The notes under the pieces: model-generated
The model's database searches: none
What the model was told of the DNA's origin: nothing
The model's input: the letters and a program-made list of their open reading frames with translations, nothing else
From: Bacteroidia bacterium
GTDB taxonomy: Bacteria > Bacteroidota > Bacteroidia > NS11-12g > UBA9320
DNA length: 64,000 nt
Direction: 5' to 3'
Assembly (NCBI GenBank): GCA_016779945.1
Contig: JADHMR010000002.1
Coordinates: 2,083-66,082, forward strand
Translations under genes and position numbers: made by a program
Shown: positions 11,591 to 34,721 of the stretch, in pieces
How positions within the stretch are numbered: position 1 is the first letter of the stretch
Layout of the letters: each line of letters starts with the position of its first letter

Positions 11591-12056
11591 GCACACAATT
11601 TGCATAAAATAACCTTTTTAATTGATCAGTTCAACACCCTTGTACCCTTTAAACATATAGGCTTGCTTTATTTAGCCTTTATTCAGAATTGGGGAGGTTG
11701 TGTATCAAGTCATCAAAATTATAGATTGTTTGATATCCATCTTTGAACATATAGACTCCTTTATGTCCTGTTACTTTTTGGTTCTTCTTATAGAGGGATT
11801 GTTGATTTTGATATTGAGTTTGGATTGAGCCAATGAGGAGAACATCGAAATCAATAGAATTAATATGCTAGTTAACCACCTATTTATAATTGTAAGCATC
11901 TCATTTTCACAAAAATATATAAAAAATGAATGGAGATATTTTAAAAAATTAGAGAATAGCATATTATAAAGTTATTAGGGTATTGGAGTATGTTAATTAG
12001 CTTACAGTAAATATAGTAAATTAATAAATGATTGGATTTAATTAACTTTGAATTAC

Positions 12057-15000
12057 ATGAGGTCAAGTCTATTGTGTCTATCTACAATGTGTATTTTGTT
12101 AAGTTCAAATGCCCAGACAATTCGTTTTAATGAGGTAGTTTCCTCAAATTCAGTATATTTTGATGAGGATGGTGATTCTCCTGATTGGATTGAATTACAT
12201 AATTATGGAAATCAAGAAGTTAGCATTGCCAATTGGACTCTTACTGATGATATTGATGATTATGATAAATGGACATTTCCAGACATTACCCTCAATAGCA
12301 ATGAATATTTATTGTTATGGGCATCTTCAAAAGATCGATCGGCTATAAGCTATTCTCGTACCATAGTAAATCAGGGAGATAATTTTAAATATCTAGTACC
12401 CACTGACGAACCGAATTCAGAATGGAAATCTTTGAGTTTTAATGATGCAACATGGTCAGAGGGACCATCTGGCTTTGGTTATGATGATGGTGACGACGCT
12501 ACACTTATACCACAGGGTAGTACTTCATTGTACATTCGAAAGAAGTTTACAGTAGACAATTTATCAGATATGGCTTCTATGGTACTTGATATTGATTATG
12601 ATGATGGGTTTGTAGCTTATATTAATGGCGTGGAGATAGCACGAGCCAATATAAATGGTAACCCGCCATCATATCAAACTACAACAATTCAAGATCATGA
12701 AGCACAAATGTACAATGGAGGTATACCCGAACGTTTTTCTGTAGATGATTTTGCAACTATTTTAAATGAAGGTGAAAATGTAATAGCTATTCAAGCACAT
12801 AATGTTTCATCAAATTCATCAGATTTTACGATTATACCATTTTTGTCGGCAATTTTTACATCACCTAACAACTCAGGTGTAACTCCACCAGTAGTTTTAA
12901 ACCTTTTATCATCAAACTACCACACTAATTTCAGTATATCATCAGATTCTGAAATATTAAGCCTTATTGATAATACGGGTGTATTAGTCGATCAATTAGT
13001 TGTAGAGAATTTGGCTCCTAACACCTCAATCGGTGTTTCTCGAAGTTCTAATGATTTGGTGAGGTTTATTGAAACTACACCGGGTTATCAAAATTCCTCC
13101 AATGAATTTGAAGGTTCAGTTTCAAGCCAAGTGGTTTTTTCACAAAAAGGGGGATTAATTAAAGAACCATTTAATCTTGTTCTGTCTGGTAATCAAGCAG
13201 ATGAAGTTATTCGATATGAATTGGGAGGGGCCAAGCCTAACGAATCATCACCTGAATACACAAATGCAATTAGTATTAGTTCAAATACCAGTGTAAGAGC
13301 AAGAATCTATTCAGAAAATAAAATTCCCTGCCCAATTTATACGGAATCCTATATATTATCTAAAAATCATGAAATAGATGTGATGTTGTTGACAGTGGAA
13401 CCTGATGACTTTTTTCATCAAGATACGGGTATTTATGTGTTTGGGCCAGAAGGAACTTTTGATCAAAACATACCCTTTTTTGGTGCTAATTTTTGGGAAG
13501 ATTGGGAACGACCCATTCATTTTTCTTTTCATGAACAAGGAGAAGATACTTCTGTTAGTTTTAATGCGGGAGTTAAAATATTTGGTGGTTGGAGTAGGGG
13601 ACAAAATGGTCAACGTTCCATGTCTTTATTTGCTAGAGGTCAGTATGGTGATTCAAAGTTTGAACATTCCTTTTTTGATCAATTGCAATACGACGATTTC
13701 GAAGCACTAGTCATTCGAAATTCTGGGCAAGATTGGTTGCGTACATCTATGAAAGACATTACCCTAACAAGTTTGATGCGTGGTTCGGATTTGGATTTTT
13801 CTGAGCACAATCCAGTTGCGACATACATCAACGGGCAATATTGGGGAATGTACAACCTAAGAGAGAAGATAAATGAGCACATGTTGGCTGCCAAACACAA
13901 CGTTAATGCCGATCAAATTACAATACTGACCAATAATGCTGAGGTAATCGAAGGTGATAATGAAGAATATGTAGCATTGATGAATTATGTTGGTACAACT
14001 GATTTATCAATTAACTCAAATTTTGAATATGTAGAACAACGGGTTGATTTGAATCAATATGCTTTATATAAAGCAGCTAATATATTTTTCAATAATACAG
14101 ATTGGCCTGGTAATAATATTAAATATTGGAAACATTCAGAAGGGAAGTGGCGATGGATTATGTATGATACCGATTTTGGTTTTGGACCATGGTGGGATTT
14201 AAATAGTTCCGGTAATAATACCTTAAGTTTCGCACTAGAACCAAGTGGACCAGCATGGCCTAATCCATCTTGGTCAACACTTCTTTTCAGAAGGTTAACT
14301 AGAAACATTGGGTTTAGAAATCAATTTATTAATCGTTATGCAGATGAATTGAATACACGTTTTCTTCCAGCTAATGTGATTGCACATATTAATAAAATTT
14401 ATAGTTCTATTTCGCCTGAGATGACTGCTCATTACGAACGTTGGAGAACAGATCCTTCGCTTTCCTACTACAATGTCAGTATTGATGACATTGATGCCTG
14501 GATTAATTTTTATGTTAATGAGATTCGAAGTTTTGCTGTGAAACGTCACCCTATTGTGAAAGATCATATTTTGTCTGAGTTTAATTTACCTAGCTTTCAT
14601 CCCATAACCATTATCAATTATGATGTTTCTGAAGGTTTTGTGAATGTAAATGATAATCTCAATATTCAAGAGGATTCATGGACTGGAGATTATTTTGAGA
14701 CTGTTCCCATACAGTTAAAGGCTATTGCAAGACAAGGGTATGAATTCTCTCATTGGAGTGGTGATTTATCGTCTACTGATGAGATAATTGAAATAAGTTT
14801 GGAAGATGCCTATGAAATAACACCTAACTTTAAACCTGCGGAATCTTTGGTAAATCCTATAGTTATTAATGAGATAAATTACAGATCTAAAGAAAGTTTT
14901 GACACGGATGACTGGATTGAGTTGTATAATCCAAATGATTCATCAATAGATTTATCTGGTTGGACTATTAAAGATGATAATGATGCTCATATTTTCTCAA

Positions 15001-15557
15001 TTCCATCAGGTACTTCAATCGAGGCGGATGGTTATCTTGTGTTCGTAAAAGATTCAGCTAGATTTTCTTCCCAATTCCCAGAAATTACTAATTACATTGG
15101 AGAACTTGGTTTTGGTTTTGGGCGGACAGATTCTGTTCGATTATATAACGAAAATAACCTTCTTCATGACCAGGTTGGATATCAGTCGAAACTACCCTGG
15201 CCAACTTGTGCGGATAAGACGGGCAAAACCTTGGAACTTATCTCATCAGATCTTGATAATTTACTGCCTGAAAGTTGGAGTTGCATAAATTTACATGGTA
15301 GCCCTAATGTAATTAACGAATTGCAAACTTCCATACTTAATGAAGTTACGTTGTATCCGAATCCAGTTCGAAGTATTTTGACGATAGATGGAATACGAGG
15401 AGCATTCAATACTAAAATTTATTCTAATATTGGACAATTGGTACATTCTTCATCTAATGTCAAACAAATTGATGTGCATTTTTTGATTGATGGTGTGTAT
15501 CATTTAACAATCGAAAAAGAGGGAGAGGTAACAGTTAAAAATTTTGTCAAGTATTGA
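12057..15557 (+). CDS. secreted CotH kinase-family protein flanked by two lamin-tail domains, with T9SS type A C-terminal domain
   Basis: ORF from TTG 12048; ATG 12057 gives signal peptide MRSSLLCLSTMCILLSSNAQ. LTD 1 (IRFNEVVSSN...DWIELHNYG...WTLTDD), a beta-sandwich (FRKKF-type...DDGFVAYINGVEIAR) and a chitobiase-C-like module (IRYELGGAKPNESSPEYT). CotH core (WERPIHFSF...VKIFGGWSRG...LVIRNSGQDW...YINGQYWGMYNLREK). LTD 2 (IVINEINYRS...DWIELYNPN...WTIKDD). CTD VTLYPNPV...GVYHLTIE. Confidence 0.8.
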   Translation: MRSSLLCLSTMCILLSSNAQTIRFNEVVSSNSVYFDEDGDSPDWIELHNYGNQEVSIANWTLTDDIDDYDKWTFPDITLNSNEYLLLWASSKDRSAISYSRTIVNQGDNFKYLVPTDEPNSEWKSLSFNDATWSEGPSGFGYDDGDDATLIPQGSTSLYIRKKFTVDNLSDMASMVLDIDYDDGFVAYINGVEIARANINGNPPSYQTTTIQDHEAQMYNGGIPERFSVDDFATILNEGENVIAIQAHNVSSNSSDFTIIPFLSAIFTSPNNSGVTPPVVLNLLSSNYHTNFSISSDSEILSLIDNTGVLVDQLVVENLAPNTSIGVSRSSNDLVRFIETTPGYQNSSNEFEGSVSSQVVFSQKGGLIKEPFNLVLSGNQADEVIRYELGGAKPNESSPEYTNAISISSNTSVRARIYSENKIPCPIYTESYILSKNHEIDVMLLTVEPDDFFHQDTGIYVFGPEGTFDQNIPFFGANFWEDWERPIHFSFHEQGEDTSVSFNAGVKIFGGWSRGQNGQRSMSLFARGQYGDSKFEHSFFDQLQYDDFEALVIRNSGQDWLRTSMKDITLTSLMRGSDLDFSEHNPVATYINGQYWGMYNLREKINEHMLAAKHNVNADQITILTNNAEVIEGDNEEYVALMNYVGTTDLSINSNFEYVEQRVDLNQYALYKAANIFFNNTDWPGNNIKYWKHSEGKWRWIMYDTDFGFGPWWDLNSSGNNTLSFALEPSGPAWPNPSWSTLLFRRLTRNIGFRNQFINRYADELNTRFLPANVIAHINKIYSSISPEMTAHYERWRTDPSLSYYNVSIDDIDAWINFYVNEIRSFAVKRHPIVKDHILSEFNLPSFHPITIINYDVSEGFVNVNDNLNIQEDSWTGDYFETVPIQLKAIARQGYEFSHWSGDLSSTDEIIEISLEDAYEITPNFKPAESLVNPIVINEINYRSKESFDTDDWIELYNPNDSSIDLSGWTIKDDNDAHIFSIPSGTSIEADGYLVFVKDSARFSSQFPEITNYIGELGFGFGRTDSVRLYNENNLLHDQVGYQSKLPWPTCADKTGKTLELISSDLDNLLPESWSCINLHGSPNVINELQTSILNEVTLYPNPVRSILTIDGIRGAFNTKIYSNIGQLVHSSSNVKQIDVHFLIDGVYHLTIEKEGEVTVKNFVKY

Positions 15558-15755: not shown

Positions 15756-15786
15756 TGTATTTGAATAACTATTTTCTTTAAATTTG
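15754..15786 (+). promoter_or_regulatory. candidate Bacteroidota -33/-7 promoter of the PUL
   Basis: TTTG (15754..15757), a 21-nt spacer, then TAAATTTG (15779..15786, exact TAnnTTTG). The -7 box overlaps the TTG used by the ORF track, which favours ATG 15814 as the susC start. Confidence 0.45.
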
Positions 15787-15813
15787 TCAAAATTTAATAA
15801 AAAATATAATCAA

Positions 15814-18800
15814 ATGCTCAGATTACCAGTTATACTTTTTTTTACACTATTTAGTTTCGTATTGATAAAAGCTCAAGTTACAGTAGGTGGTATTGTTACT
15901 GATGTATCAACTGGCGAAAAACTTATTGGGGTAACCGTTATAGAGGTTGGTTCTAATAATGGGACTGTCACTGATGAAAATGGTCAGTACACCATTTCAT
16001 TGGGGTCAGATACAGCTTCATTGAAATTCCTATACATTGGTTATACTACTCAAACCATCAAATTAAATAATCTAGTTTTTTTGAATGTTGCTCTTAATTC
16101 TGAAGAGCTTTTGGATGAAGCGATAGTAATAGGTTATGGTGAACAATCCAAAACTAAAATAACATCTGCTGTGTCTACAATTGATGCCAAAACACTAAAA
16201 AAATTACCTGTACCAACTGTAAGTAATGGACTAGAAGGTCTTGCATCTGGTTTATTTGTTCGACAAGGAAGCGGTGAACCTGGTTTTAGTGGTTCTTCTT
16301 TCGAGATCAGAAATTTTGGTAATGCTCTAGTTATTGTTGATGGATCTCCCGGTAATATTGATGATTTAGATCCCAACGAAATTGAAAATATATCCATATT
16401 AAAAGACGCAGCTGCAGCTGCTGTTTATGGTGTTCAAGGTGGTAATGGTGTTATTTTGATAACAACTCGAAAAGGATCCATTGGAAAACCAGAATTAAAC
16501 TATTCTAATCAATTTACGCTGAATTCCTTTACACAATATCCAGATTTCTTAAACTCTGTAGATTATGCTACAGTTCTCAATGAAGGTCTTGTTAATGATG
16601 GTCAATCTCCATTTTATACCCCTGAAGAAATTGAAGCATTTAGATCAGGCTCAGATCCAATAAATTATCCTAATGAAAATTGGAAAGAACTAATGTTCAA
16701 GAAGTATGGTTTTCAGCAGAGACATAACTTAAATATTTCGGGGGGTAATCAAAAGATTAAATACTTTGCCTCTGCTGGATTTTTAAATCAAGGTTCTAAC
16801 TATACAGAAGATGTATTGAACTATAATCAATACAACCTTAGAACAAATTTGAATGCTTATGTAAATGAATATCTAACTTTACAATTAAACATAGCTGGAC
16901 GTAGAAGACTTAATGAGGCTCCGGGCTATTCAGCATATGATATTTTTAGAGAGTTAAGTAGAGCCTTGCCAAACAATTTAGCTTATTATCCTGACGGAAC
17001 ACCCACAAGACCAAGTTTTAGTCCTAATCATATTATCGAAGGTATACGTGACTTTAATGCAGGATATTATCGTTCAAGAAATAATAATGTAGATGCAAAA
17101 ATTTCCATGGAGTGGGATGCTGCTCAAGTTGGTATAATTGGTATGAAATTAAAATCTTATGCTTCATTAGTTAATAATGTTTATTACAATAAAACTTGGG
17201 GTAAAAGCTATGAACTTTTTACATTAAATAGATTGACAGGTGACTTTGATGAGTATGTAGCTAGTCCTGAAGGGTCGTTTAGCGAAACAGTTCTAACACA
17301 TAGTATGAACTACAGCAACCACTATGTATTACAGGAATCGGCCAATTACGACCGCAAATTCAAAAAACATAGTATATCAGCATTATTGCTTGGAGAGCTG
17401 CAAAACAATCAAGGAGAAAATTTTTATGGTAGAAGACAGGATTATCAGTCAGATTTAATCGATCAACTCTTCGCTGGTTCAAATGAAAATAAAGATGCTA
17501 ATGGAGGAGAATACCGTGAAAATAGACTTGGATTAGTTGGTAGGCTGAGTTATGATTATTCGTCAAAATATTTTGTTGAATCATCATTTAGATATGATGG
17601 ATCATCAAAATTTGCTCCAGGCAATCAATGGGGATTTTTCCCTTCAGTTTCTGGTGGTTGGAGAATTTCTGAAGAAGATTTTTATAAAGATTTTAAAGCT
17701 ACAGTTCCAGAACTTAAATTAAGAGCCTCTTTAGGTACTGCAGGTTACGATGGTACTGCTGCATATCAATGGTTATCAGGTTTTACATACAATCACTTCT
17801 TTGCAATAAATGAAACGGCAATACCAACAATAGATAACACTTCTCTTGCAAATACAGATTTAACGTGGGAAACAATCACTACTCAGGATGTGGGTTTAGA
17901 TATCGAGTTTTTGAATCGTGAGTTAAAACTTTCTTTTGATTATTTTAAACGTTATAAAAAAGGGGTATTAGCTTATGCTTCTGGAAGTGTTCCTAATACT
18001 TTAGGAGTTGGATTGGCTGCTCAGAATTTACATGAGTATTCTAATCAAGGTTTTGAAACATCTTTGACTTATAATAAGAAATTAAATAGTAATTGGACTA
18101 TAGGAGCATTTAGTAATTTCTCTTATTCACGAGAAACTATCGAATTTATTGATGAAGCTATTATTGAAGATGATTTTATGAGAGGAAATCTAATGTTAAC
18201 TGGTGGATTTACTAATCTACGTAGAGGATATCTTTCAGATGGATTATTCCAATCACAAGAGGAAATAGATGATAGTCCAGTACAAGATAATAATGATAAC
18301 TCTACCATACAACCTGGTGATGTAAGATATGTTGACTTAAATGGCGACGGTGTTATTGATGTGCAAGACCAAAAAGTATTTGGTAATGGTGATAAGCCAG
18401 CTTATAATTTTTCATTAAATCTATCTGCCCAATACAAAAATTTTGCATTGTCTGTTTTACTTACCGGTGCTGCTGGATATGATATTTACTTGGATGGAGA
18501 GGCTCAGAGTCCACTTCGTAATGGCTTTAATGGTTATTCCTATCAATTGGATTATTGGACGCCTGAGAATGCTGATGCCAAATACCCCAGAATTTCAGAT
18601 GGGGGATTTAATGACAACAATTTCAGGTATTCTGATTTTTGGAAAAGAAGTGGTAATCATCTAAGATTTAAAAATATCAATTTAAGCTATACACTTCCCA
18701 AATTTGGTAAAAATAATGCTGGTTTCAAAGAGATTAGAATTTTTGCGACAGCCTATAATCTATTTGTTATTAAAACTTATGACGAGGATTTTGATCCTCA

Positions 18801-18873
18801 AATGCAATCATCAACGGGGTGGTATTACCCTCAAAATAAATCAACCACTTTTGGTATTAATCTTACACTATAA
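15814..18873 (+). CDS. SusC/RagA-family TonB-dependent outer-membrane transporter (no STN domain)
   Basis: ORF from 15784. Signal peptide MLRLPVILFFTLFSFVLIKAQ, CarboxypepD_reg-like VTVGGIVTDVSTGEKLIGVTV...TDENGQY, plug IVIGYGEQSKTKITSAVS, a long barrel ending TTFGINLTL. SusD gene follows 11 nt downstream. Confidence 0.9.
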   Translation: MLRLPVILFFTLFSFVLIKAQVTVGGIVTDVSTGEKLIGVTVIEVGSNNGTVTDENGQYTISLGSDTASLKFLYIGYTTQTIKLNNLVFLNVALNSEELLDEAIVIGYGEQSKTKITSAVSTIDAKTLKKLPVPTVSNGLEGLASGLFVRQGSGEPGFSGSSFEIRNFGNALVIVDGSPGNIDDLDPNEIENISILKDAAAAAVYGVQGGNGVILITTRKGSIGKPELNYSNQFTLNSFTQYPDFLNSVDYATVLNEGLVNDGQSPFYTPEEIEAFRSGSDPINYPNENWKELMFKKYGFQQRHNLNISGGNQKIKYFASAGFLNQGSNYTEDVLNYNQYNLRTNLNAYVNEYLTLQLNIAGRRRLNEAPGYSAYDIFRELSRALPNNLAYYPDGTPTRPSFSPNHIIEGIRDFNAGYYRSRNNNVDAKISMEWDAAQVGIIGMKLKSYASLVNNVYYNKTWGKSYELFTLNRLTGDFDEYVASPEGSFSETVLTHSMNYSNHYVLQESANYDRKFKKHSISALLLGELQNNQGENFYGRRQDYQSDLIDQLFAGSNENKDANGGEYRENRLGLVGRLSYDYSSKYFVESSFRYDGSSKFAPGNQWGFFPSVSGGWRISEEDFYKDFKATVPELKLRASLGTAGYDGTAAYQWLSGFTYNHFFAINETAIPTIDNTSLANTDLTWETITTQDVGLDIEFLNRELKLSFDYFKRYKKGVLAYASGSVPNTLGVGLAAQNLHEYSNQGFETSLTYNKKLNSNWTIGAFSNFSYSRETIEFIDEAIIEDDFMRGNLMLTGGFTNLRRGYLSDGLFQSQEEIDDSPVQDNNDNSTIQPGDVRYVDLNGDGVIDVQDQKVFGNGDKPAYNFSLNLSAQYKNFALSVLLTGAAGYDIYLDGEAQSPLRNGFNGYSYQLDYWTPENADAKYPRISDGGFNDNNFRYSDFWKRSGNHLRFKNINLSYTLPKFGKNNAGFKEIRIFATAYNLFVIKTYDEDFDPQMQSSTGWYYPQNKSTTFGINLTL

Positions 18874-18884
18874 ATAAATTTTAA

Positions 18885-20657
18885 ATGAAACGTAACCTTC
18901 TATTTTTAACACTATTAGTTTCAGTAATTAGTTCTTGTAAGAAAGAATTTTTAAATCAACCTCCATTGGATCGAATTACAGAATCGGATGTATGGAGTGA
19001 TCGCGATTTAATGGATACTTACATATTTCAAATATACGATAACATGCCATGGGATTATTTAAAAGATTTTGGCGGTGGTGCAGGTTGGGGAGCTCATCGG
19101 GACGCCTTAACTGACCTAGCCATGAGCACATATTCTTGGACACCGGCATACAATACTATACGCCCTGGTAATTGGGGTACATCAACTAATTATTGGCCAT
19201 TGGATTGGTGGGGGTATTATAATATTTGGAAAATTAATTATTCTATAGAAAATATTAAGCCTTTGAGTGAAGATGTATTAACAAAAACAGAAAAAGAAAA
19301 CCGTTTGGGTGAATTATATTTTCTGAGAGCGTATTGTTATTTTGCTATGGCTAAACGATATGGTGGAGTGCCAATCATTCTTGAAGCACAAGATCCAGAT
19401 AATACACCCGAAGATGAATATTTTCCGTCCAGAGATTCTGAAGAAGCTGTATATAATCAGGTCATTAATGATGTACAATTAGCATTTGATATTTTACCAA
19501 ATCGCTGGTCTAGCCAAAAAGGTAGAGCTGGTAAATGGGCTGCAAAAGCTCTTGAGTCGAGGGCCTCTTTGTATGCTGCTACTATTGCAAAATATGGTAC
19601 AGTTCAACTGAATGGTGTAGTGGGTATTTCGTCGGGTAAGGCATCTGAATATTTCCAGATCTCATTGGATGCTTCTAATAAAATAATTAATGAAGGTGGA
19701 TATGTACTTTTTAATCAATATCCAGAACCAGCAGAAAATTATAGTAAGTTATTTACTGATGAGACAGAGGACGAAACTATTTTCATGAAAGTATGGCTAC
19801 CTTATGATAAAGGACATTCATATGATTTACGAAATTCACCCTATAGTTACCGTGTTGATTGGGGGTCAAGCATGTCTCCAACCAAAGGATTGATGGATAG
19901 TTATGAAATGTTAAATTCAGGTCTTCTGCCTAGTGAACCAAATTCAGGCTATGACCCTAACAACCCTTTTGAAGATCGAGATCCTAGATTTAAAGGAACA
20001 CTACTTACAAATAATGATAATTTTCAAGGATCTGCAGTGGAGACATGGTATGCAACGGTAAGAAATGGCGAAATTGATTACAATACTGCTACAGGAGTAG
20101 GAAAGGATGGGATGGGTGTTCATCCAGATGCTACTAAGACTGGTGCATATGTTAGAAAATATCTTGCAGATGGGTCGAGTCCGTTGTTAATACAACAATA
20201 TTATTCTGGTCAAGACTGTATTCTATTTCGATTGGGTGAAATATACTTAAATGCTGCAGAAGCTGCTGTTGAACTTGGATTAGATGGTGAAGCTCGATCA
20301 TTTATTGAGCCTATCCGAACGAGAGCTGGATTAAAACAAAATCTTGATTTTAGTTCATATTCTGGAATAGAACTCAGAGATCGAATTAGAAATGAAAGAA
20401 AGATCGAATTAGCATTTGAGGACCATAGGTATTGGGACGTGCGAAGATGGAGAACTGCAGAAGTTGATCTGAGTGTAATGACTGAAGGAATTAGATCCTT
20501 AAGATATATAGATAACTTTGGAAATGAAACCTTTACATATGAAATAATTGAACCAGAACCTCAAAAAACGAATTTCTTTCCAAGACACTATTATATACCT
20601 ATAGGTCAGGATAGAAGAAATAATAATCCTAAGTTAATTGAAAATCCAGGATATTAA
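18885..20657 (+). CDS. SusD/RagB-family glycan-binding outer-membrane lipoprotein
   Basis: Lipobox LLVSVISSC. FLNQPPLDRITESDVWSD, LRAYCYFAMAKRYGGVPI, NERKIELAFEDHRYWDVRRW. Confidence 0.9.
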   Translation: MKRNLLFLTLLVSVISSCKKEFLNQPPLDRITESDVWSDRDLMDTYIFQIYDNMPWDYLKDFGGGAGWGAHRDALTDLAMSTYSWTPAYNTIRPGNWGTSTNYWPLDWWGYYNIWKINYSIENIKPLSEDVLTKTEKENRLGELYFLRAYCYFAMAKRYGGVPIILEAQDPDNTPEDEYFPSRDSEEAVYNQVINDVQLAFDILPNRWSSQKGRAGKWAAKALESRASLYAATIAKYGTVQLNGVVGISSGKASEYFQISLDASNKIINEGGYVLFNQYPEPAENYSKLFTDETEDETIFMKVWLPYDKGHSYDLRNSPYSYRVDWGSSMSPTKGLMDSYEMLNSGLLPSEPNSGYDPNNPFEDRDPRFKGTLLTNNDNFQGSAVETWYATVRNGEIDYNTATGVGKDGMGVHPDATKTGAYVRKYLADGSSPLLIQQYYSGQDCILFRLGEIYLNAAEAAVELGLDGEARSFIEPIRTRAGLKQNLDFSSYSGIELRDRIRNERKIELAFEDHRYWDVRRWRTAEVDLSVMTEGIRSLRYIDNFGNETFTYEIIEPEPQKTNFFPRHYYIPIGQDRRNNNPKLIENPGY

Positions 20658-20668
20658 GAATAACCATT

Positions 20669-21496
20669 ATGACAATTAAAAAATACGCCATTTATTTATC
20701 GATATTAAGTGTAATTATCACTGGATGTAAGGATAGCTCTGATGAACCGAATGTGGCACCATCAGCCACCGATGCAGATTTTTCATATACATCAGAACCG
20801 GATAATCCGAATATTATTACTTTTAGAGCCTCACCAAGTGTTGAAACATGGTATTCTCACTGGAACTTTGGCGATAATACTTCTGCTGAAGGATTAGAGG
20901 TTAAAAAAACATTTTACGTCAAAGGAGATTATGATGTGAAGTTTAAAATCTTTACAAATGGGGGAACAGCTGAGTCTGTGAAAACGATCACAATTGAAAA
21001 TGATTTGACAGGATCCAATTTAATCACTAATGGTAAATTAGATAATGATTCATCTTGGTCTTTATTATCTATTTCTCCTGGAGTTGACATAACATTTGAA
21101 AATGGAAATGCTACCTGGACAGGTGGTGGTTGGGGACAGACTGGAATTTACCAACAGTTTGACGTTGAGGCTAATAAGAATTACCAAATACAAATGGATG
21201 TAGTAGGAAGTGGTATGACAGATTGTTGGTTTGAAGTATACATAGGTACAACTACACCTAAAGATGGGGTAGATTACACTGATGGAGGAATACGTTTAGG
21301 ACTAAATACGTGGGATGGATGTGGAAGTGAAGCTTTTGATGGACCGTTAACTAGTCTTTCTTGTAGTTTAGGAGGTGGAGACGGTTCTTTTGAGTTTGAT
21401 GTAGATAAAAGCGTATACATCGTTATTAGAAGTGGTGGTGCAAACCTTGGTACTTCTGGTGTGAGTGTAGATAATATTACAGTTCGAGCATTATAA
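20669..21496 (+). CDS. surface lipoprotein with PKD domain and galactose-binding-like (CBM-like) domain; SGBP candidate
   Basis: Lipobox SVIITGC. PKD signature DADFSYT...WNFGDNTSAEG...HTFxxxGxYxV-like (KKTFYVKGDYDVKF). The C-terminal half, LITNGKLDNDSSW...WGQTGIYQQF...YQIQMDV...WFEVYIG, resembles CBM4/9/22-type beta-sandwiches. Confidence 0.65.
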   Translation: MTIKKYAIYLSILSVIITGCKDSSDEPNVAPSATDADFSYTSEPDNPNIITFRASPSVETWYSHWNFGDNTSAEGLEVKKTFYVKGDYDVKFKIFTNGGTAESVKTITIENDLTGSNLITNGKLDNDSSWSLLSISPGVDITFENGNATWTGGGWGQTGIYQQFDVEANKNYQIQMDVVGSGMTDCWFEVYIGTTTPKDGVDYTDGGIRLGLNTWDGCGSEAFDGPLTSLSCSLGGGDGSFEFDVDKSVYIVIRSGGANLGTSGVSVDNITVRAL

Positions 21497-21525
21497 ACAA
21501 TAACTAGCACGACAAATAAATTTAA

Positions 21526-22566
21526 ATGATAACAAGATTAATACAAACAATAATTTTATCAATCCTAATTGTAACAAGTACGATAGGTCAGGTTAATATT
21601 ACCTTTGAGGTAAATACATCAACACTTGGTAGTATTAGCCCTGATGGATTATTTATAGGAGGTGGTAGCGGTTTTGGTAAGCCCGGAGAAAATAGACTTG
21701 CAGACATTGATGGAAACGGTATATACACTATCACACTTCAAAGAGACAAGGGCTTTTCTAGCTTTTATATTTTTTTGAATGGTAATTGTGAGGATTGGTC
21801 ATGTAAAGAAAAACTAGCTGGATTACCTTGTTCTGATCCTAAAAATTTTGATGACCGATTTTTACCACCGGTTATGTCAGATACTACAATTAAAGCTTGT
21901 TTTAATACGTGTGATAATGATGGGAGTTGTACAATTATCACCGATTCAGTTGATATTACATTTGAGTTGAATACCTCAGAAATTGAAGTTGACCCTGGAG
22001 GATTATTTTTAGCAGGTGGTAGTGGTTTTGGCGTTGCGGGAGATAACCCCATGATTGATCCAGAAGATGATGGTATTTATACAGTAACTGTTAGGCGTGC
22101 AAAAGGATTTTTAAGCTATTATACGTTTCTTAATGGAAATTGTGGAGATTGGTCATGTAAAGAGAATATAGAGGGACAACCTTGTGCTGATCCAGATGCA
22201 TTTAATGATCGGTTTATTCCACCTGTCATGAATGATACAATTATTAAAACATGTTTTGCGAAATGTACCAATGATGGTTCTTGTCAAACTGCGTTTATTG
22301 GAGAATTAAAAACGGATATAAACCTATTTACCATTAGACCTACTTTGGTCAATGATTATATTAACATTCAATACAATCATGAGTCAGTATCCATGAATAA
22401 AGAAATTAAAGTTGTCAATTCTTCTGGTCAGGTCTTTGAAAAATTTATAACTAAAAATAATGCTAAAACTCAATTAAACACGCTATCATATACAAGTGGA
22501 GTCTATTTTATAACTATCCAAACATCAAATAAAATTCTAACTAAAAAATTTATAGTTCAGAAATAA
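21526..22566 (+). CDS. secreted protein with two copies of an uncharacterised six-Cys module and T9SS type A C-terminal domain
   Basis: Signal peptide ...IVTSTIGQ, two ~113-aa repeats, then CTD (RPTLVNDYINIQY...GVYFITIQTSNKILTKKFIVQK). I do not recognise a named family for the repeat. Confidence 0.75.
   Translation: MITRLIQTIILSILIVTSTIGQVNITFEVNTSTLGSISPDGLFIGGGSGFGKPGENRLADIDGNGIYTITLQRDKGFSSFYIFLNGNCEDWSCKEKLAGLPCSDPKNFDDRFLPPVMSDTTIKACFNTCDNDGSCTIITDSVDITFELNTSEIEVDPGGLFLAGGSGFGVAGDNPMIDPEDDGIYTVTVRRAKGFLSYYTFLNGNCGDWSCKENIEGQPCADPDAFNDRFIPPVMNDTIIKTCFAKCTNDGSCQTAFIGELKTDINLFTIRPTLVNDYINIQYNHESVSMNKEIKVVNSSGQVFEKFITKNNAKTQLNTLSYTSGVYFITIQTSNKILTKKFIVQK
21592..22284 (+). repeat. tandem duplication of a ~113-codon Cys-rich module (21592..21948 and 21949..22284)
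   Basis: Hand alignment gives 69 of 113 positions identical, with all six Cys conserved (NGNC.DWSCKE....PC.DP..F.DRF.PPVM.DT.IK.CF..C.NDGSC). Confidence 0.85.
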
Positions 22567-22576
22567 CATCAGGTTT

Positions 22577-25321
22577 ATGCAAATACATAGAATTTTTAAC
22601 ATTGGAATAATCCTATTTAGCTTAATTGCTAAATGCTCGTTTGATGCAAACGCTCAACACTTTTTGAAAACAAACGGAAAAGCGATTGTAAATGAGAACC
22701 AAGACACCATTATTCTAAGAGGAATGGGGCTTGGAGGTTGGATGGTAAAGGAAGGGTATATGATGCAAACAAATGCTTTTGCTAATGCTCAATATGAGAT
22801 AATGGATCTTATTGAAGATTTGATTGGAGAGGAGAACAAGGACACCTTCAATAATAGGTGGTTGTCAAATCATGTGAGGAAGGGGGATATTGATTCATTA
22901 AAATCATGGGGATTTAATTCAGTAAGAGTTCCCATGCATTACAATTTATTTACATTACCTATTCAAGAAGAGCAAATTGAAGGTCAGCAAACATGGATAC
23001 CTAAAGGTTTTGAGTTGTTAGACAGCCTTGTTGGTTGGTGCAAACAAGAAGAGATGTATGTGATTTTAGATTTACATGCAGCTCCAGGTGGTCAAGGAAA
23101 AGATGCTGCTATATCAGATTACAATCCAAACAAACCATCACTTTGGGAAAGTGAAGCTAACAGAGACAAAATGGTTGCTTTGTGGCAACGGATAGCCAAA
23201 CATTATGCAAATGAGCAATGGGTAGCTGGATATGACTTATTGAATGAGCCCAATTGGGATTTGCCAGGTGGAATAGCCATAAAAAACCTATACAAAGAAA
23301 TTACGGATAGTATTCGTAAAGTTGATCAAAAACATATTATTTTCATTGAAGGGAATTGGTTTGCAAATGATTTTACAGGGTTAACACCTCCTTGGGATAT
23401 TAATTTAGTCTATTCTCCTCACAAATATTGGTCTTTTAATGATCAATCTTCAATAGGTAGTTTCCTAGAAATAAAAAATAAATATAATGTTCCTCTTTAT
23501 CTTGGAGAAACAGGTGAAAACTCCAATGAGTGGTTTCAAAGTGCTGTCAAGTTATATGAAGATAATGATATAGGTTGGGCGTGGTGGCCATTGAAAAAAA
23601 TTGAGTCTATTTCAGGACCTCTCTCTATTATAAAAAGTGAAGAATATCAAAATTTACTAGATTATTGGAATAATGGGGGTACAAAGCCCTCGATTGCGTT
23701 TTCTAAAAAAGTTTTGTTCCAATTGGCTGAAGATTTAAAAATAGAAAACTGTCGCTATCAAAATGATGTAATTGATGCTCTATTTAGGCAACCCTTTTCA
23801 GATGAAGCCATTCCTTTTAAAAAGCATATAATTCCAGGTAGGATATTTGCATCTGATTATGATCTAGGAAAAGCAGGTGAAGCATACGATGATAATGATG
23901 TAGCTAACTATTCTGTTTCGACAGGAGAATATAGTGGTTGGAATAATGGATGGGCATATCGGAATGATGGTGTTGATATCGAAAAATGTGAAGATTTATC
24001 GAGTAATGGATTTAATATTGGTTTTTTAGAACAAGGAGAATGGATCCAATATGAAGTAGATATTGAATCTGACGGGGTTTACGACTTAAATGTAAGAACT
24101 TCATCTGGGGGATCGGGTGGTCGAATGTATTTTGCCATTGACAACCAGAGCATTACAGAATCTATTTTTGTCTACCCATCAGGTGGATGGCAAAAATGGA
24201 CAACAACAACCATATCTGATCTTGTCTTATATCAAGGTAATCATAAGTTGAGGTTTTATGTTGACCGAGCGGGTTTTAATGTGAATAGCTTTGATTTTAT
24301 AAAAACTACTCGCCAGATTGGTAATATATCAACAAAATTTATGGCAGCTGAAACGAAAGATGAATATAGCATTCAAATGAATACTAATAAGTTTCTTTCG
24401 TACTTAGATAAAATTGATTTTGATGATTTTGAAATCCTTGTTAATGGTTCTAGTATTCCAATTGGATCCATCTCCATGGATGTAACAAATCCAAAGATTA
24501 TTAATTTTAGACTGAATTATACGCTCAACTATTCTGATGAAATTAAAATTTCATATGATGGAGATCAGATTGTCTCAACTGATGGTTCCAATCTTGAGCT
24601 GTTTTCTTTAAAGAATGTGAGAAATAATATAGCTTTTGTACATCAGATTCCCACAAAGATTGAATCTGAAAGCTATACATTTCAGAAAGGAGTGGATCTT
24701 GAAGAGACAACGGATGTCGGTGGTGGGTTTAATATTGCTTATTTAGATCCTAATGATTATCTTGATTATGAAATAAATGTTACTTCCGCAGGTGAATATC
24801 AAATTAATTATCGAACTGCTGCTGAATATGGAACAGGTTCTCTGAAATTGCAGTTCATAGATACTGCTGGTGTATTGACTGAAATTAGTAACCCTACATT
24901 TTTATCAACTGGAGATTGGCAAAATTGGAAAACAACCAGTGAGACTGTTCAATTAGATGTTGGTAGATATACGATGAGGATTTTAATTACACAATCACCT
25001 TTCAATTTAAATTGGTTAGAATTTAAAGCAAAATCTTTATTTACAAAAGATAAAAATTCTCAATTTAACTCTTTTTCATTGTTTCCTAATCCTTGTAGTA
25101 ATTTGTTCAATATACAATTTGCCACAGATCGTATACAAGACATTAATTTATCTATTTATGACTTCAAAGGTAAAACAATGTCATCTAAAAGTTATTTAAA
25201 AACATCATCTCTGAATGAACAAATTTCTTTAAAAGATTACCCCTCTGGTATCTATCTTGTGAAATTAAGATTAGATAATGGTTCTGTCTCTACAAAAAGA
25301 ATAATTAAAGCAAAAAAATAG
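22577..25321 (+). CDS. GH5 glycoside hydrolase with two CBM6-like modules, an Ig-like spacer and T9SS type A C-terminal domain
   Basis: GH5: RGMGLGGWMVKEGYM, WGFNSVRVPMHYNLF, HAAPGGQ, DLLNEPNW (acid/base Glu), PHKYW, LYLGETGENS (nucleophile Glu), WAWWPLK. CBM6-like at about 23828..24304 and 24644..25027 (IPGRIFASDYD.../IPTKIESESYT... with G.WQ.W motifs). CTD FSLFPNPC...GIYLVKLRL. Confidence 0.85.
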   Translation: MQIHRIFNIGIILFSLIAKCSFDANAQHFLKTNGKAIVNENQDTIILRGMGLGGWMVKEGYMMQTNAFANAQYEIMDLIEDLIGEENKDTFNNRWLSNHVRKGDIDSLKSWGFNSVRVPMHYNLFTLPIQEEQIEGQQTWIPKGFELLDSLVGWCKQEEMYVILDLHAAPGGQGKDAAISDYNPNKPSLWESEANRDKMVALWQRIAKHYANEQWVAGYDLLNEPNWDLPGGIAIKNLYKEITDSIRKVDQKHIIFIEGNWFANDFTGLTPPWDINLVYSPHKYWSFNDQSSIGSFLEIKNKYNVPLYLGETGENSNEWFQSAVKLYEDNDIGWAWWPLKKIESISGPLSIIKSEEYQNLLDYWNNGGTKPSIAFSKKVLFQLAEDLKIENCRYQNDVIDALFRQPFSDEAIPFKKHIIPGRIFASDYDLGKAGEAYDDNDVANYSVSTGEYSGWNNGWAYRNDGVDIEKCEDLSSNGFNIGFLEQGEWIQYEVDIESDGVYDLNVRTSSGGSGGRMYFAIDNQSITESIFVYPSGGWQKWTTTTISDLVLYQGNHKLRFYVDRAGFNVNSFDFIKTTRQIGNISTKFMAAETKDEYSIQMNTNKFLSYLDKIDFDDFEILVNGSSIPIGSISMDVTNPKIINFRLNYTLNYSDEIKISYDGDQIVSTDGSNLELFSLKNVRNNIAFVHQIPTKIESESYTFQKGVDLEETTDVGGGFNIAYLDPNDYLDYEINVTSAGEYQINYRTAAEYGTGSLKLQFIDTAGVLTEISNPTFLSTGDWQNWKTTSETVQLDVGRYTMRILITQSPFNLNWLEFKAKSLFTKDKNSQFNSFSLFPNPCSNLFNIQFATDRIQDINLSIYDFKGKTMSSKSYLKTSSLNEQISLKDYPSGIYLVKLRLDNGSVSTKRIIKAKK

Positions 25322-25342: not shown

Positions 25343-26872
25343 ATGAAGAATTTGAAACTAGTTTGTTTGTATTTTTTTCAATATTTTTTTAACATAAAAT
25401 TTATGAATTGTAAAACTAGCATTACTATAATATGTCTGATTTTATTGGGCTTTATATGTAAAGATACTTTTGGACAATCTCGAGTCCAATTAAACTCAAA
25501 AGATAATAGAGACAGTGTATTAGTCTATACTACTGCAAAAAATACAGATTTGAAGTTAACACTAACATCTAAGCCTGCTTTTGTTTCTGCATTCCAACCG
25601 TTGGAAACAGAGGTTTCTATATTTGTAAATCCAAATAAAACCTTTCAAACTTTCTTTGGAATAGGTGGTGCTATTACTGACGCTTCTGCAGAAGTTTTCT
25701 CATCATTATCCTCCTTAAAGCAAGAAGAGTTGTTAAACGCATATTATAGCTTAGAAAATGGTATAGGATATTCATTGGTTAGAACTCATATTCATAGTTG
25801 TGATTTCAGTAGTGATAGTTATACTTATGTATCAGATAGTGACAAATCATTAAAAACTTTTTCAATTGAACATGACAAAAAATACAGAATCCCAATGATC
25901 AAACGTGCTACGGTAATGGCTAGTGGTCATTTACCTTTATATGTAAGTCCGTGGAGTCCACCAGCATTTATGAAAACCAACAAAAATATGCTTCGAGGGG
26001 GAAAGTTATTATTTGAGTATAGAGATGCTTGGGCAATGTACTATGTAAAATTCATTAAAGCATATGAAAAAGAAGAATTGCCAATTTGGGGGCTGACTAT
26101 TCAAAATGAGCCAATGGCAACACAACGCTGGGAATCGTGTATTTATTCTGCAGAAGAGGAAAGAGACTTTTTAAAGAATCATTTAGGACCAACATTAGAT
26201 AAAGAAGGACTAGGAGATAAAAAAATAATTGTTTGGGATCACAATAGGGATTTAATTGTCAATCGTGCGAATACTATATTCGACGACCCTGAAGCATCCA
26301 GGTATGCATGGGGTATTGGTTTTCACTGGTATGAAACTTGGACCGGAGGAGAACCCATGTTTTCTAATTTGGGTAATATAAATGAATCTTATCCAACTAA
26401 AAATCTTGTATTTACTGAAGGTTGTAATGAAGGTTTTGATGCTTCTAAATATCAATATTGGCCGAATGCAGAACGTTATGGAAAATCTATGATCAATGAT
26501 TTTAATAATGGAACTGTAGCTTGGACTGATTGGAATATCCTTTTGGATGAAACAGGTGGCCCCAATCATGTTAATAACCTTTGTTTTGCTCCAATTCATG
26601 CAGATACCAGAACAGATGAATTAATTTATACACCTAGTTATTACTATATCGGTCATTTTTCAAAATTTATTAGACCAGGAGCTAAGAGAGTTAGTACTGT
26701 TTCTAGTAGGAGTATTCTTGAGGCCACGTCCTTTATCAATGACGGAGGTAAAATGGTTACTATAATTATGAATTCAACTGATAAAAATATCAAATATCAA
26801 ATGTATGTAAATTCAAAGTCAGTTTCTATGAAAATTTTACCACACTCAATACAGACATTACTCTATAAATAG
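25343..26872 (+). CDS. GH30 glycoside hydrolase (glucosylceramidase-like / beta-1,6-glucan-active type)
   Basis: FFGIGGAITDASAEV, YSLVRTHIHSCDFS, SPWSPPAFMKTN, WGLTIQNEP (acid/base), LVFTEGC (nucleophile). Collinear with GBA-type GH30 as remembered. Alternative start ATG 25403 gives a cleaner signal peptide. Confidence 0.85.
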   Translation: MKNLKLVCLYFFQYFFNIKFMNCKTSITIICLILLGFICKDTFGQSRVQLNSKDNRDSVLVYTTAKNTDLKLTLTSKPAFVSAFQPLETEVSIFVNPNKTFQTFFGIGGAITDASAEVFSSLSSLKQEELLNAYYSLENGIGYSLVRTHIHSCDFSSDSYTYVSDSDKSLKTFSIEHDKKYRIPMIKRATVMASGHLPLYVSPWSPPAFMKTNKNMLRGGKLLFEYRDAWAMYYVKFIKAYEKEELPIWGLTIQNEPMATQRWESCIYSAEEERDFLKNHLGPTLDKEGLGDKKIIVWDHNRDLIVNRANTIFDDPEASRYAWGIGFHWYETWTGGEPMFSNLGNINESYPTKNLVFTEGCNEGFDASKYQYWPNAERYGKSMINDFNNGTVAWTDWNILLDETGGPNHVNNLCFAPIHADTRTDELIYTPSYYYIGHFSKFIRPGAKRVSTVSSRSILEATSFINDGGKMVTIIMNSTDKNIKYQMYVNSKSVSMKILPHSIQTLLYK

Positions 26873-32669: not shown

Positions 32670-34721
32670 TTGATTGTCTTGAAGAAATTTAATCTTTTCT
32701 GCTTGCTCATATTTCTTTTGCTAACAACTAGAAATTACGGGCAATCATACTCTGCCAATGGAAATGCAAGGTCTTTAGGGGGTGATTGTTATCTTCTTAC
32801 TGGAGCTTTAGATTGGCAATTGGGTTCGGTATGGTATGCCGATCCAATTGATTTGTCTAAAGATTTTGATTTAGAATTTTATTTAAATTTCGGGAATAAA
32901 GACGGATCAGGTGCAGATGGTATTGTCTTTGTAATGCAGGATGTCAGCAATAAGGCAATTGGAAAGTCGGGAGGTGGACTAGGATTTGAGGGTTTTTCTC
33001 CAAGTTTTGGCGTAGAGTTTGATGACTTTAACAATGAGAGCATGGGCGATTTATCTAGTGATCATATCGCCATTTTAAAAAATGGAAGTGTGGATCATCG
33101 AAGCTCCAATAGTATTAGTGCTCCTGTAACTGCAATTTCTGGTGGAGGTAACATTGAAGATGGACAAGATCATCTTGTACGAATGGTATGGGTTGAAGAT
33201 ACAAAAGAGTTTCAGGTTTGGTTTGATTGTGAATTAAGACAACGTATTTTCTATGACATTCAAAACAATATATTTAACGGTGATAATTTGGTTTATTGGG
33301 GATTTACATCATCAACTGGGGGCTTAAACAACCGTCAATCAGTTTGTTTAAGAGATGATATATTAGTCGATGACACAATGACCTTGTGTAAAGGAGAATC
33401 AATCCTTCTAAATTCAAGAGAAAGTAAAAATAACCAGTATACATGGTCACCCGATTTATATTTAAGTGATAATTCAATTCGGAAACCATCTTGTTCCACT
33501 ACCGAGCCTATTACTTATTACGTAGAATATAAAGATTTGTGCGATAATGTTTTTAAAGACACCTTATTTGTCGATGTAGATCAACCTTTTTTGATTGATG
33601 ACTTTACCGATACATTGCTATGCAACGGCTCAGGGTATTCATTTGATTTTACCTCTAAATACGATTCGGTTTATTGGAATAGTGGCTCTCGAAATAAAAA
33701 AATAACTTGGATAAATGAGGGAGAATACGCAATGAGGGCTTGGCAGGGCGTATGTTATGACGATGATACGTTTAATATCACAGTAAGTGAAAATCTAGAA
33801 ATTAAGTTTTCGGGAGATACAACATTTTGTGAGGGAGATTCTACACTTTTGAGTCTTGATATCACACCAAGCGATGCGGTATATCAGTGGGAAGACGGAT
33901 TGTCAAGTTTATCACGATATTTCAGTTCTACAGACGATGTTCTTGTAAAAGCCAAGAATAGCTGTGACTCTGTAACTCAAGCATATTCTATTCGGGAAAT
34001 TATTTTAGAAGAATTTTCTCTTGGCAATGACACACTACTCTGCATTGGAGATACGCTTACCATTGGGCCAGTAACACAAAACACGATTGACTATTTATGG
34101 AGTAATAATAGTAGCCTATCAAGAATAGATGTGACTGAGGCAGGAACTTATATCCTTGAAATTAGCAAAGAAAGCAAATGTTATGACTCAGATACAATTG
34201 TAGTAAGTGATTTAGATATTCCGTTATTGGATAACCTAGACGATGTTCTTTTGTGTAAAAGAGAGAAAATTGAGGTGTCTATACCTAATGCAAATGGGGA
34301 AGTGATTTGGAATAATCAAGAAATTGGAGAGTCGATTACTTTGGAAAATATTAATGGTAGGATAGATGTTAAGATGACTAATGTATGTGGAGAGGATAGT
34401 ACCTCTTTTGAAGTTAATTTGGTTGATTGCTACTGTGACATGATTTATCCAAATGCATTTACACCAAATGAGGATAATTTAAATGATAATTTTAGACCTA
34501 CACCAGACTGTCCTAAGCTTTCTGAATTTAAATTACAGATCTATAACCAATGGGGAGAGTTACTTTTTGAAAGTACAGATATAAATAAGTATTGGGACGG
34601 TAGTTTCCAAAATGTTAGATGTCAGGATGGAGTATATTTTTGGACATCAAATTGGAAGGGAATACTCAATGGAATCATACAGGAACAATCCTCAAGTGGG
34701 ATTGTACATTTGATACGATAA
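32670..34721 (+). CDS. secreted L-type (legume-like) lectin domain protein with T9SS type B C-terminal domain
   Basis: TTG start with signal peptide. Lectin-like N-terminus (LTGALDWQLGSVWY...GADGIVFVMQD...GGGLGFEG..PSFGVEFDDFNN...DHIAI). Cys-rich repeats (C.GDS..L). C-terminus YPNAFTPNEDNLNDNF...LQIYNQWGELLFES...GVYFW. Confidence 0.75.
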   Translation: MIVLKKFNLFCLLIFLLLTTRNYGQSYSANGNARSLGGDCYLLTGALDWQLGSVWYADPIDLSKDFDLEFYLNFGNKDGSGADGIVFVMQDVSNKAIGKSGGGLGFEGFSPSFGVEFDDFNNESMGDLSSDHIAILKNGSVDHRSSNSISAPVTAISGGGNIEDGQDHLVRMVWVEDTKEFQVWFDCELRQRIFYDIQNNIFNGDNLVYWGFTSSTGGLNNRQSVCLRDDILVDDTMTLCKGESILLNSRESKNNQYTWSPDLYLSDNSIRKPSCSTTEPITYYVEYKDLCDNVFKDTLFVDVDQPFLIDDFTDTLLCNGSGYSFDFTSKYDSVYWNSGSRNKKITWINEGEYAMRAWQGVCYDDDTFNITVSENLEIKFSGDTTFCEGDSTLLSLDITPSDAVYQWEDGLSSLSRYFSSTDDVLVKAKNSCDSVTQAYSIREIILEEFSLGNDTLLCIGDTLTIGPVTQNTIDYLWSNNSSLSRIDVTEAGTYILEISKESKCYDSDTIVVSDLDIPLLDNLDDVLLCKREKIEVSIPNANGEVIWNNQEIGESITLENINGRIDVKMTNVCGEDSTSFEVNLVDCYCDMIYPNAFTPNEDNLNDNFRPTPDCPKLSEFKLQIYNQWGELLFESTDINKYWDGSFQNVRCQDGVYFWTSNWKGILNGIIQEQSSSGIVHLIR

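Follow-up and report, generated by a model that had tools for sequence, protein, structure and literature searches.

A tandem cysteine-rich module of the starch-binding-domain fold in a predicted beta-glucan utilization locus of a Bacteroidia bacterium

The 64,000-nucleotide window analyzed here, the whole stretch taken from contig JADHMR010000002.1 of a marine Bacteroidia bacterium (assembly GCA_016779945.1), carries a polysaccharide utilization locus (PUL) of six same-strand genes separated by gaps of 10-29 nt. The fourth of these genes encodes a protein made of two back-to-back cysteine-rich modules and a sorting domain of the type IX secretion system (T9SS), and is the subject of this work (Table 1). 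The original prediction, made from the sequence alone, had placed it within a PUL, between a lipoprotein resembling the surface glycan-binding proteins (SGBPs) and a glycoside hydrolase family 5 (GH5) enzyme, an arrangement borne out by Pfam and by the matches of the lipoprotein to SGBP-B. After the GH30 gene that closes the cluster, the next gene is RmuC, on the opposite strand. The modules are an unnamed, Cys-rich sequence family inside a known fold, that of the starch-binding domains of carbohydrate-binding module (CBM) families 20 and 48, and not a new fold; a laminarin-type beta-glucan is tentatively favored as their ligand.

Table 1. Genes of the cluster and segments of the two-module protein, numbered from the first letter of the window
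Feature	Position	Strand	Basis or remark
SusC-like TonB-dependent transporter, first gene of the cluster	15784..18873	+	Pfam CarbopepD_reg_2 and Plug
SusD-like protein	18885..20657	+	Pfam SusD_RagB, E 7.9e-49
SGBP-B-like lipoprotein (lipobox Cys20, PKD, CBM4-like beta-sandwich)	20669..21496	+	Pfam PKD_4, profile match, AF2/Foldseek
Open reading frame (ORF) of the two-module protein	21526..22566	+	346 aa; stop codon included in the coordinates
Sec-type signal peptide, residues 1-22, MITRLIQTIILSILIVTSTIGQ	21526..21591	+	sequence reading
Module 1, residues 23-141 (core 23-138)	21592..21948	+	module HMM 175.5 bits; AF2; Foldseek
Module 2, residues 142-255, 61% identical to module 1	21949..22290	+	module HMM 190.3 bits
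Linker, residues 256-274, joining module 2 to the sorting domain	22291..22347	+	falls between HMM envelopes
T9SS type-A C-terminal sorting domain, residues 275-344/346, with stop	22348..22566	+	Pfam PF18962, TIGR04183
GH5 with two CBM6/CBM35-like modules and T9SS C-terminal domain	22577..25321	+	Cellulase E 2.1e-32; CBM_6 E 1.5e-39 (2 stretches); CBM_35_2; Por_Secre_tail
GH30 (glucosylceramidase/beta-glucosidase-like branch), last gene of the cluster	25343..26872	+	Pfam Glyco_hydro_30, E 3.9e-73

The signal peptide of the two-module protein is hydrophobic and, as read from the sequence, ends ...STIGQ/VNITF without a lipobox Cys; the protein is therefore not a lipoprotein and lacks the anchoring residue that SGBPs of the SusE/F type carry in their signal. 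Matches to the module hidden Markov model (HMM) begin at residue 23 in this protein and, in nearly all orthologues, between residues 21 and 24. At the other end, the T9SS C-terminal domain (CTD) already noticed in the original prediction is recognized above threshold by both Por_Secre_tail (PF18962, residues 275-344, 39.3 bits against a threshold of 27, E 7.8e-10) and TIGR04183 (42.8 bits against 23, E 3.9e-11). The protein thus combines the N-terminal Sec signal and the C-terminal Por_Secre_tail/TIGR04183 domain of type-A T9SS cargo, and the linker between module 2 and this domain matched no model.

Between signal and linker lie the two repeated units. Residues 23-141 and 142-253 align by BLASTP with 69 identities (61%) and 87 positives over 113 positions and a single gap (E = 3e-52), far above chance, and all six Cys of unit 1 align with those of unit 2, which reproduces exactly a count first made by hand. 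At the DNA level the units are 67.6% identical. Unit 1 shares 65% identity with the same-position module of orthologues versus 52.5% with the module at the other position, and unit 2 shares 63% versus 58%; the duplication is therefore old, and both copies have been maintained under constraint. The module HMM found the module in no other gene of the window. As originally predicted, the units are without a sequence match to any named family in Pfam-A (2025), NCBIfam (2026) or the PDB sequence set, and a search of the single protein against the PDB by sequence gave noise only. A sub-threshold PAN_2 match on the window protein (E 0.0054, 20 residues) and CFSR matches on relatives (barely at threshold, about 30 residues) were dismissed as Cys-pattern or low-complexity noise. 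Two antisense ORFs of 78 and 95 aa, at 21274..21510 and 21765..22052 on the minus strand, overlap the PKD lipoprotein gene and the two-module gene; both have Pro/Ser-rich, low-complexity translations and are most likely not genes.

The structure of unit 1 was modeled with AlphaFold2 (AF2) from an input alignment of 62 module sequences. The model (mean predicted local distance difference test score, pLDDT, 92.5; predicted template modeling score, pTM, 0.86) is one compact beta-sandwich, with strands (E2-8 ... E88-94, E98-103) on either side of the Cys cluster. Among the top 50 Foldseek matches in the PDB, 45 are CBM20-containing entries and three more are CBM41 or CBM25; these extend over about 101-123 alignment columns with probabilities of 0.97-1.00. 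Sequence identities are 8-17%, and the template modeling (TM) scores of the CBM20 matches are 0.55-0.66. The best match is STBD1 (8x8k; E 2.5e-4, query TM 0.55, target TM 0.65, 116 columns), and other CBM20 matches include CGTase domain E, fungal glucoamylases, GDE5, beta-amylase and one maltotetraose-forming amylase. By model and structure search alike, the module has the roughly 100-residue starch-binding-domain beta-sandwich of the CBM20 fold, and the whole unit of about 115 aa very probably forms a single domain of this CBM20/CBM48 type. An early impression of a starch-binding beta-sandwich in the first half of the unit proved apt. The idea that the Cys-rich second half is a separate, unnamed element did not survive, given the strands on both sides of the Cys cluster and CBM20 alignments of 110-120 columns: as modeled, the Cys-rich part supplies the other half of this one sandwich and, beyond it, a short C-terminal tail.

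Homology to the CBM20/48 superfamily becomes visible through distant relatives, which carry a second, more divergent module type (the sister modules) beside the Cys-rich one. Sister modules are picked up by the module HMM along their entire extent, with E-values of 1e-5 to 1e-7, and in turn pass or come near the Pfam thresholds of CBM_48, CBM_20, AMPK1_CBM, pullulanase X25 and CBM53. For instance, CBM_48 is passed by sister modules interleaved with Cys-rich ones in P0072 (31.1 bits), P0095 (31.3), the L074 protein (52.9) and P0175 (61.6), and CBM_20 by some relatives (L067, 34.4; P0196, 30.3; P0175, 36.7; P0103, 26.2; P0108, 28.2 bits); in L067, P0196 and P0175 the above-threshold CBM_20 match lies near or inside Cys-type modules. 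An alignment of 32 Cys-rich modules (A3) and one of 7 sister modules (A4) match each other in hhalign with 99.4% probability (E 1.3e-21, 105 of about 116 columns), and an HMM built from A4 alone matches both window modules at full length, with 38.9 bits for module 1 and 40.7 bits for module 2. Against the PDB, A4 retrieves the starch-binding domain of Aspergillus niger glucoamylase (1ac0, E 0.0038), the CBM48 of AMPK-beta1 (E 0.02), SIP2 and SEX4. A mixed profile also matches 1ac0 (E 0.017), driven largely by its sister modules. Since direct sequence routes to the PDB are either noisy or driven by the sister modules, the case for homology rests on the chain of hhalign match, sister-module Pfam matches and fold match.

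Residue conservation, counted over 200 module copies, singles out a small set of positions. The six Cys (66, 71, 80, 103, 107 and 113) belong to the motif NGNCxDWSCKE...C...NDR...CFxxCxxDGxC. C80 (199/200) and C107 (198/200) are essentially invariant, C103 is present in 186 copies and C113 in 193. C66 and C71 occur together in 181 copies and are jointly missing from the other 19, never one alone, from which we infer a local C66/C71 disulfide; the pairing elsewhere in the module is likewise a prediction. Within the C66-x4-C71 loop, position 69 is aromatic in all but one copy (W in 136, Y in 37, F in 26). Position 45 is Y or W without exception, F28 is kept in 180 copies, and K72, E73 and R89 are near-invariant. 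Two independent profile alignments place W69 (W91 and W210 of the window protein) opposite W590 and C80 opposite C604 of the A. niger glucoamylase domain, and F28 stands opposite W543 in one profile alignment only, inside a gapped loop. W543 and W590 make up binding site 1 of CBM20, and C604 is one partner in the sole disulfide of that domain. Judged by these alignments, one half of a site-1-like aromatic platform (W69) appears clearly retained and the other half (F28) plausibly so.

At roughly even odds (a probability of about 0.5), we read the product of the fourth gene as a T9SS-exported, surface-retained, bivalent and non-catalytic capture protein for laminarin-type beta-1,3/1,6-glucan. 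Following Sec export and removal of the signal peptide, two rigid, disulfide-stapled beta-sandwich modules would cross the outer membrane by way of the type-A CTD and most likely stay attached to the cell surface. Each module would present an aromatic platform equivalent to CBM20 site 1, composed of W69 in the Cys66-x4-Cys71 loop and F28. The bivalent protein would then concentrate substrate, most probably a laminarin-type beta-1,3/1,6-glucan, beside the SusC/D transporter, the SGBP-B-like lipoprotein and the T9SS-exported GH5, as a supplement to the canonical lipoprotein. Taken separately, binding of some glycan by the module is probable, and the assignment of a beta-glucan as the ligand falls just short of an even chance.

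The neighboring lipoprotein speaks for a laminarin-type substrate. Its Cys20 is invariant in 30 homologues, its profile matches Bacteroides fluxus SGBP-B (7kv5-7) at E 3.8e-12, and its AF2 model (pLDDT 88) best matches, by Foldseek, SGBP-B from the beta(1,3)-glucan loci of B. thetaiotaomicron and B. fluxus, the 7kv7 complex with laminaritriose among them; next come the PKD-CBM44 structure 2c26 and the CBM4 structure 1gui. Some homologues of this lipoprotein have Pfam matches to SusE-N (PF14292) or CBM_4_9. The enzymes of the locus are assigned to family level only. The structure nearest to the GH5 is 9ku5, annotated as a putative beta-xylosidase (E 1.7e-37), with endoglucanases and exo-beta-1,3-glucanases more distant, and the GH30 falls in the SrfJ/glucosylceramidase branch, its nearest PDB sequences being 2wnw, human GBA and 5ngk. 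CBM6/35 modules, two of which are fused to the GH5, bind many beta-glycans. Such breadth, and enzymes of these types, would also suit a different ligand, for instance a beta-1,6-, beta-1,4- or mixed-linkage glucan, xylan-type oligosaccharides or glycolipid head groups. A ligand of this kind is nevertheless distinctly unlikely: the SGBP-B-like neighbor resembles laminarin-binding proteins, related module proteins also occur in loci with GH16 and GH3, the canonical laminarin set, and loci combining GH5-CBM6 and GH30, with GH16, are predicted laminarin PUL variants (Kappelmann et al., PMC6298971). Two of the six PUL products, the two-module protein and the GH5 enzyme, use the T9SS rather than lipoprotein anchoring. 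A promoter and terminator scan of the locus, with a sigma-70 consensus that is not applicable to Bacteroidota, gave counts at or below shuffle expectation.

The arrangement recurs in other genomes. When the neighbors of the gene were compared by tblastn with 80 related loci from species-representative genomes, the order SusC-SusD-PKD lipoprotein-two-module protein-GH5(-GH30) was found to be kept in about 30 of them, with the two-module protein 49-98% identical there; SusC is syntenic in at least 27 loci at 63-93% identity, and SusD is syntenic too. Among the genomes with this order are the cultured Phaeodactylibacter xiamenensis KD52 and P. luteus, metagenome-assembled genomes (MAGs) of Lewinella and many MAGs of Saprospiraceae. 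At 34-38% identity the relatives are longer T9SS proteins with multiple modules, encoded directly upstream of a different SusC/D pair; after that pair come PKD proteins, GH16 (in many cases with Calx-beta) and GH3, and a GH2-like gene lies close by. A Pfam census of 215 neighbor ORFs (200-900 aa, within 8 kb) at 48 non-syntenic loci found GH16 to be the commonest family (7 + 11 = 18), then SusD (4 + 7 = 11), Calx-beta (3 + 8 = 11), GH3 (6) and MFS sugar transporters.

The same census bears on the ancestral specificity of the fold, under which the modules would still bind alpha-1,4/1,6-glucans (starch, glycogen, floridean starch) and would sit in a beta-glucan locus owing to co-capture of storage glucans freed alongside from lysed algae. 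Both the matches in fold and the sole links by sequence indeed lead to CBM20, CBM48, AMPK1_CBM, X25, CBM53, CBM41 and CBM25, and the equivalent of the site-1 residue W590 is conserved. Yet GH13, GH31, GH65 and GH97 are absent both from the families listed for the 215 neighbor ORFs and from the window locus, the associated enzymes (GH5, GH30, GH16 and GH3) all come from beta-acting families, and the site-2 tyrosines and polar site-1 residues of CBM20 are not recognizably kept. Retained alpha-glucan binding is, on this balance, very unlikely.

Elsewhere in the window, other large T9SS proteins are encoded on the plus strand. Just upstream of the PUL, 12048..15557 encodes 1,169 aa with a CotH kinase-like domain, two Lamin-tail domains, Fn3_assoc/CHB_HEX_C and a T9SS CTD; this CotH/LTD gene is not conserved with the PUL, having a match in only 1 of the 80 related loci. 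Two further genes encode cargo with a type-B CHU_C domain, one with four PKD_6 repeats (5779..9375, 1,198 aa) and one with an N-terminal legume-lectin-like beta-barrel (32670..34721, 683 aa).

The module family is sizeable. Searched against 5.8 billion proteins, the two-module region yielded 126 relatives, most of them 340-350-aa orthologues of the same architecture that carry no annotation beyond 'T9SS type A sorting domain-containing protein' or 'hypothetical protein'. A HMMER search with A3, exhaustive over 1.84 billion cluster representatives (clusters at 50% identity), found 2,078 proteins at E <= 1e-3, 1,212 at <= 1e-10 and 502 at <= 1e-30, with up to 17 copies per protein. Orthologues have 2-5 Cys-rich modules each. 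Relatives in Flavobacteriales and Crocinitomicaceae carry long arrays in which Cys-rich modules alternate with CBM48/20-like sister modules, in proteins of up to about 2,960 aa. Giant T9SS proteins of 9-17 alternating modules are found at loci L046, L050, L053, L055 and L078 (module genes at about 9.5-14 kb) and in proteins P0121 and P0129; many such proteins lie outside PULs, in a recurrent DUF819/YaaA/FKBP neighborhood. An N-terminal cupredoxin of the plastocyanin/azurin type is fused to the module in P0104, P0114, P0196 and L064:2357-4789, FG-GAP and UnbV_ASPIC in L060, and Cleaved_Adhesin in P0234. P0110 (311 aa, on a contig of only about 1 kb) has an N-terminal thrombospondin type-1/spondin-like TSP1 domain (E 5.7e-18) followed by two modules, a combination that may be eukaryotic or otherwise unusual. 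Literature searches on the module, on CBM20/48 together with laminarin and on PULs of Phaeodactylibacter or Saprospiraceae turned up no account of it.

Several observations weigh against a beta-glucan capture protein of the CBM20/48 type. By sequence, neither CBM_20 (PF00686, gathering score 23.3 bits; searched even at E <= 1) nor CBM_48 (PF02922, gathering score 22.4 bits) has a match in the window protein. The profile of Cys-rich modules only (A3) retrieves noise and no CBM from the PDB, which places the Cys-rich family past the direct HMMER reach of named families. To our knowledge, all characterized families of the CBM20/48 fold bind alpha-glucans, not beta-glucans. At the aligned positions there are no clear counterparts of the site-2 tyrosines (Y527/Y556) or the polar site-1 residues (K578, N595), in loops that align poorly. 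CAZy expects a CBM to be a discrete fold inside, or attached to, a carbohydrate-active enzyme; Pfam scans of the window protein and 17 long relatives found no glycoside hydrolase, polysaccharide lyase or carbohydrate esterase domain, and the link of the module to carbohydrate-active enzymes is by gene neighborhood only. Its fusion partners in the 17 long relatives are instead the T9SS CTD, cupredoxin, FG-GAP/UnbV_ASPIC, fn3, bacterial Ig-like and Cleaved_Adhesin domains. A further subset of the loci in the census is not PUL-like, with recurrent DUF819, YaaA and FKBP neighbors. Such partners and neighbors suit a general adhesin no less than a substrate-specific CBM. Finally, type-A CTD cargo is sometimes released instead of anchored.

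Much of this would be expected if the modules were disulfide-stabilized Ig-like spacers or adhesin repeats that bind no carbohydrate and serve to hold a distance or to attach to particles, algal cells or proteins. Proteins that reach about 2,800-2,960 aa, arrays with as many as 17 copies, partners typical of adhesins (fn3, Bact_surface_Ig-like, Cleaved_Adhesin, FG-GAP) together with cupredoxin, the lack of any catalytic fusion among the proteins scanned and the many loci that are not PULs all suit such a role. The window protein, however, consists of two modules and a CTD only, with nothing else to space; the aromatic residue of the solvent loop at position 69, along with the near-invariant K72, E73 and R89, speaks for a ligand site and not for a passive spacer; and synteny in SusC/D loci is tight across families. 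A purely structural or adhesive role is therefore considered unlikely, and capture of a laminarin-type glucan is preferred.

What is new here is accordingly narrower than first supposed. The original prediction was of a candidate new domain, one to be abandoned on a confident structural match to a named CBM. Such a match has now been found, so the claim of a new domain fails at the level of fold and superfamily, where the CBM20 structure match and the sister-module link apply, but it stands for an unnamed sequence family, possibly with a new ligand. The novelty is that of an unnamed sequence family in a well-known fold, with a plausible change of ligand. It is possible, if somewhat doubtful, that a disulfide-stapled offshoot of the starch-binding fold has switched from alpha-glucan to laminarin and forms a new CBM family of about 2,000 clusters at 50% identity, displayed by marine Bacteroidota through the T9SS as multivalent capture proteins, with 2-5 copies in the GH5/GH30 loci of Saprospiraceae and, in Flavobacteriales, up to 17 that are interspersed with CBM48-like modules. 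Laminarin ranks among the largest fluxes of marine carbon cycling, and the surface proteins that capture it are only partly catalogued. The present family is unnamed in Pfam and NCBIfam and stands repeatedly beside SusC/D with GH5/GH30 or GH16/GH3. If its modules do bind beta-glucan, they would be the first of the CBM20/48 fold known to us with that specificity, an added CAZy family would improve the prediction of PUL substrates in metagenomes, and T9SS cargo, beyond lipoproteins, would supply a glycan-capture layer of PULs. If they bind nothing, they are one more Ig-like surface-protein repeat.

Among known systems, CBM20 (PF00686; 1ac0, STBD1 8x8k, CGTase domain E) is closest in structure. 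The same beta-sandwich extends over the whole module, with Foldseek probability 1.00 and target TM up to 0.66 at 12-17% identity, and the residues equivalent to W590 and C604 are kept. In contrast to CBM20, the window modules have three Cys pairs (predicted disulfides), a DPxNFNDRxLP insertion and, at the C-terminus, a CxxxCxxDGxC tail; they form a stand-alone T9SS protein rather than an appendage of an amylolytic enzyme, and the neighbors of their gene are beta-glucanases, not GH13, GH14 or GH15. Known members of the CBM48/AMPK-beta/X25 group (PF02922, PF16561, PF22058) bind glycogen or starch and are found with GH13 enzymes or with kinases/phosphatases. Models of this group are passed by sister modules homologous to the Cys-rich module, whereas the window's own modules have no match to them.

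Two further comparisons concern setting more than fold. CBMxx and CBMyy are repeated, previously unassigned laminarin-binding CBMs of marine Bacteroidota, of which CBMxx resembles a GH50-appended module (4BQ2) and has a binding cleft, and CBMyy is a beta-barrel like a B. fluxus SGBP domain (Zuhlke et al., 10.1101/2023.09.07.556657). They share the ecological setting of the present modules, being repeated CBMs in non-catalytic proteins of marine laminarin PULs, but neither is CBM20-like or Cys-rich, and identity of the window module with either was ruled out on the difference in fold. SusE/SusF and SGBP-B (7kv5-7, 7kwb) are likewise non-catalytic proteins of tandem CBM-like beta-sandwiches, encoded beside SusC/D and presumed to capture substrate at the surface. 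Those proteins are lipoproteins with an N-terminal Cys anchor, whereas the two-module protein pairs a plain signal peptide with a T9SS CTD. Because the locus already encodes a canonical SGBP-B-like lipoprotein, the two-module protein is an additional component of the PUL.

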